Below are positions 22,848 through 25,430 of a stretch of DNA of 64,000 nt, piece after piece (the first letter of the stretch is position 1; each line of letters begins with the position of its first letter). This DNA is from an uncultured Chloroflexia bacterium (GTDB taxonomy: Bacteria > Chloroflexota > Limnocylindria > Limnocylindrales > CSP1-4): the NCBI GenBank assembly GCA_963735785.1, contig CAVTMH010000001.1, positions 78,824 through 142,823 of the forward strand. Direction: 5' to 3'. The notes under the pieces were generated by a model. That model saw only the letters and a program-made list of their open reading frames with translations, was not told where the DNA came from and made no database searches. The translations under genes were made by a program, and so were the position numbers.

Positions 22848-25430
22848 CTAGACGGGGTCCTTCGCCAGGTGACGCTGCATGGCGGCCTTGCGCGACAGGT
22901 TCACGCGGCCCTGGCGGTCGACCTCGGTCACGACCACCATCACCTCATCGCCGACGGACACGACGTCCTCGACGGTGGGCACGTGGTAGTCGGCGAGCTC
23001 GCCGATGCGGACCAGGCCCTCCTTCCCGGGCAGGATCTCGACGAACGCGCCGAAGCCCATGATCCGGGTGACCTTGCCGAGGTATAGCGCACCGACCTCG
23101 ACCTCGCGAGTCAGCGACTCGATCCACTGGATCGCCTTGCGCGAGTTCTCGCCGGAAACGGCCGCGATCTCCACGGTGCCGTCGTCCTCGACGTTGATCT
23201 CGGTCTGGGTCTCTTCCTGGATCTTGCGGATCATCGATCCACCCTTGCCGATGATCTCGCGGATCTTCTCGGGGTTGATCTTGATCGTGATGATGCGCGG
23301 CGCGAAATCGCTCATGTCGGCACGGGCCTCGGGGAGGACCTCGGCCATCTTGTCGAGGATCGTCAGGCGGGCCGTGAGGGCCTGCTTGAGACCATCACGG
23401 ATGATCGCCTCGCTGATGCCCTGGACCTTGATGTCCATCTGCAGGGCGGTGACACCGTCCCGCGTGCCGGTCACCTTGAAGTCCATGTCACCGATCGCGT
23501 CTTCCTTGCCGAGGATGTCGGTCAGGACGACGAACCGGCCATCCGGCTCGCTGATCAGGCCCATGGCCGCGCCGGCAACCGGCGCCTTGATCGGGACGCC
23601 GGCATCCATGAGCGCGAGCGTCGAGCCGCAGGTCGAGGCCATCGAGGTGGACCCGTTCGACGTCACGCACTCGCTCACGAGGCGGATGACGTACGGGAAC
23701 TCGTCGTGGCTCGGCAGGACCGGCAAGAGCGCCCGCTCGGCCAGGTGGCCGTGCCCGATGTCGCGCCGGCTGGGCCCGCGCATCATCTTGTTCTCGCCGG
23801 TGCTGTAGGGCGGGAAGTTGTAGTGGTGGAGGTAGCGCTTCTCGGTCTCCGGACTGATCGTGTCGATCCGCTGGACGTCCGAGGACGAACCGAGCGTGGC
23901 CACGGTCAGGGCCTGGGTCTCGCCACGCGTGAAGAGACCGGAGCCGTGCGCGCGCGGGATGAGGCCGACCTCGACCGAGATCGGACGGATGTCCGTCAGA
24001 CCGCGGCCGTCGATCCGGATGCCCTCGTCCAGGACGATCCCCCGGACGGTCTTTTTCTGGATGAGGCTGAACAGGTTCTTGCTGACGCGTGCCTCGCGGC
24101 GGGCCGCCTCGAGCAGCGCCGGCGTGTCGCCACCGGTGCGCTGTGCGCGGACGGCGTTGCCGATCGATTCACGAAGCGCGGTGATCCGACCCGGAAGGTC
24201 GTTCGCGAACCAGAGCACCAGCTCCGCGGTCGCCTCGGCGTCCGGCAGGGCGCGATGGCTCTGGGAGAGCTCGACGCCGAAGAAGCGGGCGAGGTCCCCG
24301 AGCTTGTACGACTCGGCGCCGGGATAACCCTCGCGGGCGATGACCAGGGTGTCGAGGTACGTACCCGGCCCGAATCGGAAACCATCGCCCTTCGCCTCTT
24401 CGATGAAGCCGAGGTCGAAGCCGATGTTGTGGCCCACGATCAGCCCCTCGCCGACGAAGGCAAGAAGCTGTTCGGCAGCCTCCTTCGGGCTGGGTGCGCC
24501 CTTGACGTCCTTGTCGGTGATGCCGTGCATCTGGTTGCCGACGATTGGGCGGCCCGGGTTCACGAACGTCGACCAGCGGTCGACGACCTTGGTGCCCTGG
24601 ACCTTGACCGCGGCGACCTCGACGAGGTCCGCCATCTTCGGGTCGGTACCGGTCGTCTCGACGTCGATGACGACGAGCTCTCGCTTGTCGTCGGTCGCTG
24701 AGGCGAAGTCGAGGACCGAGTCGGTCGGCGGCTCGATATACGGGACCCGCTTGGCCTTGCCGACGGCCTTCTGGAGCTCGTCCTGCAGGTCGACGAGCGG
24801 CTGCAACGCTCGATGACCGAACAGGATCGCCTCGGCCATGACCGCCTCGGGCAGGAGCTTGGCACCCGCCTCGACCATCATGATCGCGTCGCGCGTGCCG
24901 GCGACGATCAAGTCGAGCTCCGAGTCGGCCAGCTGGCTGTGCGTCGGATTGACGACGAACTCGCCGTCGATGCGGCCGACGCGGACGCTTCCGATCGGGC
25001 CGTTGAACGGGATCTCGCTGATCGTCAGGGCAGCGGACGCGGCGATGGTGCCGATGACGTCCGGGTTGTTCTCCTGATCCGTCGACAGCACGGTGATGAC
25101 GAGCTGGACATCGTCCTTGTAGCCCTTTGGGAAGAGCGGCCGGATCGGCCGGTCCGTCTGGCGGGCGGCGAGGATGGCGTGCTCCGACGGGCGCGCCTCG
25201 CGCTTGATGAAGCCGCCCGGGATCTTGCCCGCGGCGTACATCCGCTCCTCGAAGTCGACGGTGAGGGGGAAGAAGTCGAGGCCGGGGCGGGGCTCGGATC
25301 GGTTGGCCGTGCCGAGCACCATGGTGTCACCGTACCGGACGGTGACGGAGCCGCCGGCGAGCGTTGCGAGCTTGCCGGTCTCGATGGTCAGCGTGCGACC
25401 ACCGAATTGCGTCTCGAATGTTTGAGACAA
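22848..25430 (-). CDS. pnp: Polyribonucleotide nucleotidyltransferase with an inserted DEDDh exonuclease domain
   Basis: DFFPLTV, RIDGR, HGSGLFTRGETQ, SNGSTSMAS, EDAIGDMDFK, KH (IIGKGG) and S1 (FGAFVE) motifs. The insert spans aa ~251-408. Confidence 0.97.
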   Translation of the reverse strand: MSQTFETQFGGRTLTIETGKLATLAGGSVTVRYGDTMVLGTANRSEPRPGLDFFPLTVDFEERMYAAGKIPGGFIKREARPSEHAILAARQTDRPIRPLFPKGYKDDVQLVITVLSTDQENNPDVIGTIAASAALTISEIPFNGPIGSVRVGRIDGEFVVNPTHSQLADSELDLIVAGTRDAIMMVEAGAKLLPEAVMAEAILFGHRALQPLVDLQDELQKAVGKAKRVPYIEPPTDSVLDFASATDDKRELVVIDVETTGTDPKMADLVEVAAVKVQGTKVVDRWSTFVNPGRPIVGNQMHGITDKDVKGAPSPKEAAEQLLAFVGEGLIVGHNIGFDLGFIEEAKGDGFRFGPGTYLDTLVIAREGYPGAESYKLGDLARFFGVELSQSHRALPDAEATAELVLWFANDLPGRITALRESIGNAVRAQRTGGDTPALLEAARREARVSKNLFSLIQKKTVRGIVLDEGIRIDGRGLTDIRPISVEVGLIPRAHGSGLFTRGETQALTVATLGSSSDVQRIDTISPETEKRYLHHYNFPPYSTGENKMMRGPSRRDIGHGHLAERALLPVLPSHDEFPYVIRLVSECVTSNGSTSMASTCGSTLALMDAGVPIKAPVAGAAMGLISEPDGRFVVLTDILGKEDAIGDMDFKVTGTRDGVTALQMDIKVQGISEAIIRDGLKQALTARLTILDKMAEVLPEARADMSDFAPRIITIKINPEKIREIIGKGGSMIRKIQEETQTEINVEDDGTVEIAAVSGENSRKAIQWIESLTREVEVGALYLGKVTRIMGFGAFVEILPGKEGLVRIGELADYHVPTVEDVVSVGDEVMVVVTEVDRQGRVNLSRKAAMQRHLAKDPV
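24207..24680 (-). other. DEDDh (DnaQ/PolC-exo-like) domain inside PNPase
   Basis: VIDVETTG (ExoI), HGIT, GHNIGFD (ExoII), LDTL and HRALPDA (ExoIII). Confidence 0.92.

Follow-up and report, generated by a model that had tools for sequence, protein, structure and literature searches.

Introduction

Polynucleotide phosphorylase (PNPase) is among the most conserved enzymes of RNA decay, and its domain plan is usually deemed fixed. The canonical bacterial enzymes, as known from E. coli, Caulobacter, S. antibioticus and M. tuberculosis (7ogk, 4aim, 1e3p, 8wxf), combine two RNase PH cores that carry the phosphorolytic motifs with a KH and an S1 domain, and their gene lies next to rpsO. Here we analyze a pnp gene in a 64,000-nucleotide stretch of contig CAVTMH010000001.1 from an uncultured Limnocylindria bacterium of the phylum Chloroflexota (the window, meaning the whole stretch). 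Its product shares all of these features, but it has about 160 extra residues, a predicted DEDDh 3'-5' exonuclease, inside the helical linker between the two cores, and it is unmatched over the N-terminal two thirds of the helical-domain profile.

ExoDinG (S. aureus, 8zef/9ii8; B. subtilis; Listeria) carries a DEDDh domain of the same kind, likewise tethered to a larger nucleic-acid-handling protein, and is the best structural neighbor of the insert. It differs from the fused PNPase, which has no helicase, Arch or iron-sulfur (FeS) domain and in which the exonuclease is nested rather than N-terminal; direct descent of one from the other is not shown by our tree. The PolC exonuclease, the closest solved relative of the insert by sequence and by root mean square deviation (rmsd), is also nested in another host domain, the PHP region of PolC, but there the host is a DNA polymerase and the job is proofreading. 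Orn and RNase T belong to the same Pfam family (PF00929) and share the DEDDh chemistry, yet they are not the best matches of the insert; both work as obligate dimers.

Two multiprotein assemblies invite comparison. In the eukaryotic exosome the ring is catalytically inert and the nucleases are separate subunits, Rrp44 being of the RNB type and Rrp6, like RNase D, a DEDDy enzyme, whereas the ring of the fused PNPase keeps its phosphorolytic sites and its predicted nuclease is DEDDh and covalently attached. The RNA degradosome of Caulobacter is a non-covalent complex on an RNase E scaffold and contains the DEDDy enzyme RNase D, in contrast to the single polypeptide described here. It does join PNPase and a DEDD-superfamily nuclease in one assembly, and its describers draw the parallel to the exosome, a PNPase-like ring with the hydrolytic nucleases Rrp6 or Rrp44 (PMC4245959).

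Activities have been reported for both parents of the comparison. S. aureus ExoDinG degrades single-stranded DNA (ssDNA) and single-stranded RNA (ssRNA) (PMC11981726), and the Listeria DinG exonuclease removes unprocessed rRNA, with PNPase among the enzymes named as finishing the job (PMC12774634). The helical domain of the E. coli enzyme sits on the side of the torus away from S1 and KH, where it contributes to a side pore that offers another way into the active site and is thought to serve the traffic of nucleoside diphosphates (NDPs) and phosphate; the domain influences PNPase activity and may control the access of NDPs and phosphate (Nurmohamed et al. 2009, PMC2723993). The first-pass annotation of the window, which had been made from the letters alone, knew of no description of a PNPase with a nested DEDDh exonuclease, and our literature searches for this architecture found none; the main text of the DinG review mentions neither PNPase nor Chloroflexota (PMC11981726).

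Results

A DEDDh domain nested in a housekeeping PNPase

The gene is a single open reading frame on the minus strand. Its parts are as follows (coordinates are those of the window; aa, amino acid positions).

22848..25430 (-): pnp, 860-aa PNPase with nested exonuclease; single open reading frame, TTG start, stop codon included
24750..25430 (-): first RNase PH core, aa 1-227, with GKAK at its end; Pfam RNase_PH and RNase_PH_C
24681..24749 (-): linker before the insert, aa 228-250, with a single short helix at aa 238-247; AlphaFold secondary structure
24216..24680 (-): predicted DEDDh 3'-5' exonuclease domain, aa 251-405; PF00929 (E 3.3e-28), NCBIfam, AlphaFold and Foldseek
24657..24665 (-): Exo I motif, D256-V-E258; codon positions and alignment
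24414..24416 (-): Exo II codon, D339; codon position and alignment
24240..24257 (-): Exo III motif, H392 to D397; codon positions and alignment
24021..24215 (-): helices after the insert, aa 406-470, the last being the end of the canonical PNPase helical domain; AlphaFold and PF03726
23331..24020 (-): second RNase PH core with the phosphorolytic site, aa 471-700; Pfam RNase_PH at aa 481-613 and motifs
23118..23300 (-): KH domain, aa 711-771; Pfam KH_1 and KH_2
22887..23102 (-): S1 domain, aa 777-848; Pfam S1 (E 6.4e-18)

Pfam matched two RNase_PH and two RNase_PH_C domains, RNase_T (PF00929), KH and S1 in the 860-residue protein, in the order that the first-pass annotation had led us to expect. 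The PF00929 match covers aa 253-404 (E 3.3e-28; 99.7 bits, cut-off 24). GKAK (aa 224-227) and RIDGR (aa 472-476) are separated by 244 residues, close to the roughly 245 given earlier, and the alignment places an ordinary linker of about 85 residues at this position in the sister enzymes that have no insert. The catalytic residues D256, E258, D339, H392 and D397, four acidic residues and a histidine, all lie at the codons assigned to them in the earlier, slightly wider block (nt 24207-24680, aa 251-408), which is in frame. The motifs SNGSTSMAS (aa 591-599) and EDAIGDMDFK (aa 643-652), which form the phosphorolytic active site, are in place in the second PH core, their residues are invariant among 38 aligned PNPases, and KH and S1 are intact as claimed. 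Judged from these residues, both catalytic centers of the fused PNPase are intact. GC content is flat across the insert and the gene.

The whole protein scored 951.5 bits against the NCBIfam PNPase equivalog TIGR03591 (cut-off 525.05) and 949.8 bits against NF008805 (cut-off 471), in each case in two stretches that flank the insert. KH and S1 come after its two RNase PH cores, and its predicted fold agrees with solved PNPases. The helical-domain profile PF03726 matched only at positions 52-80 of 81 (aa 448-476) and at 22.8 bits, below its cut-off of 24.6, so that a complete all-alpha linker is not present; in the AlphaFold models the remainder of the linker is replaced by the insert and new helices. 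This is where the fused PNPase varies and is no ground for excluding it from the PNPase family. The protein belongs to the PNPase family and the DEDDh family alike.

The genome from which the window comes (3.1 Mb, 3 contigs, 91.7% complete) contains a single pnp, and a second copy was not found in it; rpsO lies directly upstream. Since the gene is the sole pnp and occupies the rpsO-pnp cluster position, the fused PNPase is the housekeeping copy, as had been supposed. The genomes used here and below are mostly incomplete metagenome-assembled genomes, in which a gene that is not found need not be absent.

The insert is of the epsilon/PolC/DinG kind

We next compared the insert with known exonucleases. 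Alone, it matched the NCBIfam models for DEDD exonucleases, DinG and PolC with E values of 5e-44 to 6e-37 and up to 150 bits; neither Orn nor RNase T was among its 25 best NCBIfam models. Taken with the score of the whole protein against the PNPase equivalog, these matches go far past any chance resemblance. A PDB sequence search returned PolC first (9qpc, E 2.3e-24; 2p1j, E 1.4e-23), S. aureus ExoDinG (8zef) at E 5.6e-18, and further matches to DnaQ, Cas2-DEDDh, epsilon and ExoX. The AlphaFold model of the insert with its helices (predicted local distance difference test, pLDDT, 92.6) has the RNase H-like exonuclease fold in Foldseek, where the top match was S. aureus DinG (8zef_A, E 1.1e-12, 203 columns) and PolC (9qrn) aligned with an rmsd of 1.8 Å over 167 columns. 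DinG and PolC were followed by DnaQ/epsilon and only then by RNase T (from rank 13) and ExoX, all with a probability of 1.00. The epsilon subfamily model TIGR00573 was just reached by the insert alone (71.8 bits, cut-off 71.5) and gave 67.1 bits for the whole protein, while epsilon equivalogs remained far under their cut-offs (e.g. TIGR01406, 82.7 against 222.7 bits).

By profile and predicted fold, the insert is thus best classed as a DEDDh domain of the epsilon/PolC/DinG kind. PF01612, the DEDDy family, had no match at E <= 0.01 in the fused PNPase, and Exo III carries His392, not Tyr; being DEDDh and not DEDDy, the insert is not of the RNase D/Rrp6 kind. The likeness to an exosome with Rrp6 that the first-pass annotation drew therefore holds for function only, the insert being a DEDDh domain of the epsilon/PolC/DinG kind and Rrp6 a DEDDy enzyme.

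Predicted placement in the ring

The AlphaFold model of the full-length protein had a pLDDT of 81.7 and a predicted template modeling score (pTM) of 0.74, and Foldseek aligned it with solved PNPases at E values of 3e-70 and below, no listed chain being longer than 730 residues. One short helix (aa 238-247) precedes the insert, and helices at aa 394-432, 436-447 and 451-469 follow; the last exonuclease helix continues as the long helix aa 394-432, after which two helices lead into the second PH core. The helical linker is thus split around the insert as proposed earlier, in that helices stand on both sides, but the split is uneven, with one short helix before and three after. Since the domain is grafted into the helical linker, the geometry of the E. 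coli enzyme (PMC2723993) leads us to expect three nucleases on the face opposite KH/S1, beside the side pores. The exonuclease domains would then lie where the first-pass annotation had put them, a placement that agrees with Nurmohamed et al. 2009 (PMC2723993) by analogy of the graft site.

The catalytic residues are conserved and the insert is under selection

In an alignment of 54 fusion proteins from three families, D256, E258, D339 and H392 were kept in 54/54 and D397 in 53/54; decay of these residues in relatives, which would have spoken against a nuclease, was therefore limited to a single change. The exception, L036 (genome G143, family f1 below), has His in place of D397, which may reflect an error in sequencing, a substitution that the enzyme tolerates or the loss of its activity. 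Pairwise dN/dS of the exonuclease domain was 0.40 within family f1 and 0.20 within f4, compared with 0.13-0.20 for the PNPase cores and 0.38-0.69 for the flanking helices; these are rough pairwise Nei-Gojobori (NG86) estimates in a GC-rich genome. Conservation was lowest in the linker before the insert (dN/dS 0.42-0.69; 25% identical in f1 and f4). These values indicate that the insert is under purifying selection.

The fused architecture marks three families

To place the fusion in its lineage, we used a class sample of 151 genomes, comprising the insert-bearing families f1 (45 genomes), f2 (6) and f4 (50) and the sister families f3 (49) and f5 (1). A single stop-free match running from residue 32 or before to residue 856 or beyond was present in 96 genomes: 44 of f1 (the window's own included), 6 of f2 and 46 of f4. 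In the f1 genome G180 two abutting pieces took the place of the single match, and in the f4 genomes G131, G159 and G138 contig ends cut the match, yet the junction between the first PH core and the insert was covered; the f4 genome G096 had no match to the fused PNPase. The architecture is thus present in 100/101 sampled genomes of the three families, and none was seen in the two sister families, where 48/49 f3 genomes and the one f5 genome have the PNPase halves but not the middle, the frames being some 740-770 codons long. The distribution is therefore clade-wide, which the first-pass annotation had left to be checked. The class tallies include the unpublished genomes G102, G122, G126, G131, G139 and G156, and those made with the insert alone, with ExoDinG and for DEDDh domains also G145; no locus was taken from these genomes, our claims stand without them, and if they are left out the fused architecture is found in 46/47 f4 genomes and the insert-less form in 45/45 of f3.

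In a phylum sample of 301 genomes (among them the likewise unpublished G216, G312, G337, G385 and G424), a full-length match occurred in 33 only, all of f1, f2 or f4; 264 had a split or partial match and 4 none. The other Chloroflexota genomes, about 264 in number, accordingly did not show the fused architecture. When one genome per bacterial species was scanned with the insert plus linker as query, 542 relatives were obtained, and the best 80 of the 542, which we examined, were all Limnocylindria-like. Four of these loci (L152, L157, L175, L188) are filed under Verrucomicrobiia, Patescibacteria, Polarisedimenticolia and Deferrimicrobiaceae; their PNPases are 73-84% identical to that of the window and their contigs 2.2-16 kb long, for which reasons they are most likely mis-binned Limnocylindria contigs. 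As a lead only, clusters of the ESM Atlas that combine RNase_PH and RNase_T (scores 0.78-0.82) always had Chloroflexota as their commonest phylum.

The junctions of the insert were seen in independent material. Among the 80 loci, which come from named public genomes, 75 gave one alignment over both junctions, 3 were cut at contig ends and 2 were interrupted. Contigs from four public runs (two soil DNA, two RNA-library) bridge both junctions, with near-identical pieces that include X4 records 27 and 31; no single contig extends over all 1.1 kb, and the runs contain relatives of this strain rather than the strain itself (shares <=0.29). Contigs in RNA libraries are no proof of transcription, and their low-cover parts carry no meaning. 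A chimeric assembly was rejected on these junction counts across genomes, loci and public runs. In L183, L190 and G180 (G180:C1:2219904-2222133) the pnp alignment breaks within or just past the insert into abutting pieces. The two interrupted loci, L183 and L190, are probably frameshifts, and all three breaks are probably frameshift errors of long-read assembly rather than pseudogenes.

Trees support a single origin of the insert

We then built trees, which were quick searches with support given as the Shimodaira-Hasegawa-like approximate likelihood ratio (SH-aLRT) only. In a tree of 71 DEDDh domains, which took 14 of the 40 f1 inserts (every third) and kept all other rows, the PNPase inserts formed one group (SH-aLRT 96) that was split into f4 and f1 plus f2. 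In a tree of the PNPase cores, from which linker and insert columns had been removed and which was rooted on eight other Chloroflexota, the 28 insert-bearing enzymes of f1, f2 and f4 formed one group (SH-aLRT 99.7) and the f3 and f5 enzymes the other (SH-aLRT 99). One insertion on the stem of f1, f2 and f4, followed by vertical descent, is the simplest history.

In other Chloroflexota, similar domains occur on ExoDinG, on proteins that join an exonuclease to GIY-YIG and UVR, and on stand-alone proteins of about 194 residues. The GIY-YIG/UVR fusions rank among the closest non-PNPase relatives of the insert. Two such relatives, L079:2884-5070 (+) and L083:2064-3875 (-), are exonucleases fused to a UvrC-like nuclease (GIY-YIG plus UVR) of the NF005906 type. 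We also considered whether the exonuclease domain had moved directly from dinG into pnp; the best tree does not show such a move, though grouping the two is allowed at a p of 0.27 in the approximately unbiased (AU) test.

The insert and ExoDinG occur in different families

When the class was searched with the insert alone, the best match in f3 and f5 was 41-45% identical and lay in a frame of about 890-1040 codons. Pfam identified this protein as ExoDinG, in which RNase_T stands at the N terminus, ahead of DEAD and Helicase_C_2. Used as query in turn, ExoDinG was found at full length in 48/49 f3 genomes and in 1/1 of f5. In f1 (45/45), f2 (6/6) and f4 (49/50) its best match was the exonuclease domain only, at the coordinates of the PNPase insert; with this query, the insert and the exonuclease domains of sister-family ExoDinG were 40-51% identical. 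The helicase part of ExoDinG remained unmatched in the best match of every one of the 100 f1, f2 and f4 genomes that had a match; two stray matches to this part were a 36%-identical stretch in a 2041-codon frame of G121 and a 107-codon contig fragment of G075. Without the genomes named above, the ExoDinG tally is 44/45 for f3 and 46/47 for f4. Pfam found no helicase domain in the fused PNPase, and PF13307 (Helicase_C_2) had no match anywhere in the window's own genome.

The f3 and f5 ExoDinG proteins of about 890 residues (L064:1738-4416 (+), L065-L067) have several cysteines between DEAD and Helicase_C_2. As these may be the site of an FeS cluster, the proteins may be true helicase-nucleases, unlike the Bacillales forms treated in the DinG review.

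PF00929 had one match only in the window's own genome, the insert. In the class sample, exactly one match was counted (by hand) in 126 of the 151 genomes, two or three in 22 and none in 3; without the genomes named above, exactly one DEDDh domain is present in 119/144. Among the insert-bearing genomes a second DEDDh protein was found in 6/45 of f1, 5/6 of f2 and 3/50 of f4, and owing to this minority the pattern of one DEDDh per genome has exceptions. Such second loci include L102:167-1492 (-), L103:555-1610 (-) and G025:C2:301392-301853; one has a TerB-like region, and the stand-alone protein of f2 has 206 residues. As a rule, then, there is one DEDD nuclease domain per genome, mounted on a DinG helicase or inside PNPase. 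Since each state marks one clade, the pattern reflects one evolutionary event and not many.

Gene neighborhood and other RNases

The neighbors of pnp that matter for what follows are listed below.

25554..25838 (-): rpsO (ribosomal protein S15), directly upstream of pnp; Pfam Ribosomal_S15, E 1.6e-34
28227..29246 (-): DHH/DHHA1 protein, an NrnA-like candidate nanoRNase in the pnp cluster; Pfam DHH and DHHA1
18879..20561 (-): RNase J, downstream neighbor of pnp; Pfam RNase_J_b_CASP and RNase_J_C

The gene order is nusA, infB, rbfA, the DHH/DHHA1 gene (NrnA-like), truB, ribF, a cobalamin adenosyltransferase gene (on the other strand), rpsO, pnp, asd, a gene of the uracil-DNA glycosylase (UDG) superfamily, the RNase J gene and ftsK. 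In five Limnocylindria genomes that we compared, three insert-bearing and two insert-less, a small DHHA1 protein lies about 2-4 kb from pnp in 5/5, and every one of them encodes three DHHA1 proteins, two as long as AlaRS and RecJ and the third being the small NrnA-like protein. The RNase J model TIGR00649 was above its cut-off in 5/5, always near pnp. No RNase E/G turned up in these 5 genomes and no RNase II/R (RNB) in any of 101 class genomes, and PF01612 (DEDDy) was above its cut-off in 0/5 genomes. As neither RNase E/G nor RNase II/R was found, the decay machinery looks RNase J-based.

Several further features of the region were noted. RNase J follows pnp closely, past asd and the UDG-superfamily gene (window 18879-20561 (-) and 20582-21394 (-)). 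The ribF-like open reading frame at 26525-27271 (-) encodes 248 aa in which only the FAD synthetase domain was matched at E <= 1e-5; its riboflavin kinase half may be missing or divergent. The cobalamin adenosyltransferase gene at 25965-26528 (+) breaks the usual truB-ribF-rpsO-pnp run between ribF and rpsO. Elsewhere in the genome, an RNase PH-like match (L002, G000:C3:712593-713372) has one in-frame TGA inside the aligned stretch, where the alignment may run past the end of the gene into the next frame.

Discussion

We propose, with a probability of roughly 0.55, that the DEDDh module supplies the nuclease activity that relatives obtain from ExoDinG and that it acts mainly on RNA 3' ends. 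A housekeeping PNPase would have gained an active DEDDh exonuclease once, in its helical linker, on the stem of three Limnocylindria families. The resulting homotrimer is predicted to carry three phosphorolytic sites and three hydrolytic, phosphate-independent 3'-5' sites, and 3' ends could be attacked by two chemistries. The module would take the job held by the ExoDinG nuclease in the sister families and in most other Chloroflexota examined, namely the trimming or clearing of single-stranded 3' ends, most probably of RNA (unprocessed rRNA and other 3' tails), and of ends at which phosphorolysis has stalled. The KH/S1 ring of PNPase would replace the helicase as the platform that holds the nucleic acid.

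With no RNase II/R, RNase D, RNase T or Orn found, the insert appears to be the sole hydrolytic DEDD-type 3'-5' exonuclease in these genomes. Several considerations favor RNA 3' ends as its substrate. PNPase, the host protein, acts on RNA, and its gene is clustered with genes for translation and RNA functions. S. aureus ExoDinG cuts ssRNA too, and the Listeria DinG exonuclease clears unprocessed rRNA. Nor did these genomes yield any other hydrolytic 3'-5' exoribonuclease.

A number of observations weigh against this proposal. The best tree groups the inserts with stand-alone DEDDh proteins and rare f1 paralogues (SH-aLRT 85) and not with the ExoDinG domains of Limnocylindria; forcing the latter together with the inserts costs 8.9 log-likelihood units (AU p 0.27), so that a DinG origin of the insert is only not rejected and the donor is neither shown nor excluded. 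The gain of the insert and the lack of DinG on one branch could be a coincidence of two unrelated changes, and 22/151 genomes of the class carry two or three DEDDh domains instead of one. The exonuclease domain evolves faster than the cores, with an identity between f1 and f4 of 46% compared with 68-77% and a dN/dS of 0.40 within f1, and one genome carries D397H (L036). For B. subtilis DinG, ssDNA and RNA-DNA hybrids are the preferred substrates, and the enzyme is reported not to cut linear ssRNA with Mg2+ (PMC12525004); given this preference, a DinG-like role could be on DNA. Finally, the activity, its substrate, be it RNA or DNA, and a possible hand-over from one site to the other are all inferred.

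More tentatively, the fused PNPase may be a single-chain "bacterial exosome". It would be the only 3'-5' exoribonuclease in a lineage without RNase II/R, D, T, Orn and E/G, and would unite phosphorolysis and hydrolysis on one ring. Ends that resist phosphorolysis would be passed to the DEDDh sites, and the arrival of the insert alongside the loss of ExoDinG would imply that the essential job of ExoDinG is RNA 3'-end surveillance. The ends that the phosphorolytic sites cannot finish would be those that are structured, very short, or met when phosphate is scarce.

That the module is directed at DNA is the rival view to be taken seriously, though it seems to us unlikely. It would then trim ssDNA 3' ends or the RNA strand of R-loops in repair or replication stress, with PNPase, which works with RecN and RecA in other bacteria, as its platform. 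In B. subtilis, PNPase digests ssDNA in the 3'-5' direction and takes part in the repair of double-strand breaks (PMC2709576, PMC3241651), and the preference of B. subtilis DinG for ssDNA and hybrids (PMC12525004) points the same way, as do the DNA-handling nature of the nearest families of the insert (PolC, DinG, epsilon, exo-GIY-YIG) and the loss of DinG in the same clade. However, the host enzyme works on RNA, carries the RNA-binding domains KH and S1 and is encoded among genes for translation and RNA functions, and the ExoDinG enzymes of S. aureus and Listeria act on RNA; the sequence itself cannot tell RNA from DNA.

We consider it improbable that the module, placed at the side pore, serves as an Orn-like nanoRNase for the short oligoribonucleotides that PNPase leaves. 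The helical domain lines the pore to the phosphorolytic site (PMC2723993), dedicated enzymes are required for short RNAs (PMC9779919, PMC10570053), Orn and RNase T were not found, and the insert is the sole PF00929 match in its own genome. Yet an NrnA-like DHH/DHHA1 gene stands in the pnp cluster, near pnp in 5/5 genomes with or without the insert, so that the need for a nanoRNase is probably already met, and in the same way in the sister clade. Orn and RNase T, moreover, lie outside the 25 best NCBIfam models, RNase T ranks behind DinG, PolC and epsilon among the Foldseek matches, and a trimer does not provide the obligate dimer of Orn and RNase T. The finishing of nanoRNA, one of the functions offered in the first-pass annotation, is on this evidence among the weaker options.

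Little speaks for a non-catalytic or regulatory module, either a structural stand-in for part of the helical domain or a binder of nucleic acids or nucleotides that gates the pore, and we hold it to be very improbable. It would fit with the influence of the helical domain on activity and its possible control of NDP and phosphate access (PMC2723993), with the faster evolution of the insert relative to the cores, and with the existence of pseudo-exonuclease forms of DinG (pExoDinG; PMC11981726). Those forms lose the catalytic residues (PMC11981726), whereas four of them are kept here in 54/54 proteins of three families and the fifth in 53/54, and the dN/dS of the exonuclease domain is 0.2-0.4.

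A replicative proofreader, in which the only DEDDh domain of the genome would serve DNA polymerase III in the manner of epsilon, is scarcely credible. The insert is indeed the sole PF00929 match in its genome and alone reaches TIGR00573 (71.8 bits, cut-off 71.5), but the whole protein, at 67.1 bits, stays under the cut-off. The domain is embedded in an RNA enzyme, the only DEDDh domain of the sister clade sits on DinG and not on a free epsilon, and two proteins of DnaE size with strong PHP domains are present in 5/5 genomes; PHP domains can proofread in other bacteria. Least of all do we believe in an assembly or annotation artefact such as a chimeric contig, for which the broken in-gene alignments of L183 and L190 (2 of the best 80 loci) and of G180 might be cited, against the same junctions in 100/101 genomes, 75/80 public loci and contigs of four public runs, the even GC over the insert and the congruent trees of insert and core.

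In public records the fused proteins appear either simply as PNPase, which conceals the additional domain, or as "DNA polymerase III epsilon family exonuclease", which is a misnomer. What is built into the helical linker, the least understood part of PNPase, is a second catalytic domain of another predicted chemistry, and the fused form has been retained in at least three Limnocylindria families. These lineages are a natural experiment on the roles of the helical domain and the side pore and on the purpose of the ExoDinG nuclease, which recent papers link to rRNA quality control and the removal of R-loops. The complementary distribution predicts that the PNPase insert replaces the function of ExoDinG. 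If the more tentative view of a bacterial exosome were true, a PNPase platform would carry out RNA 3'-end surveillance without any helicase.

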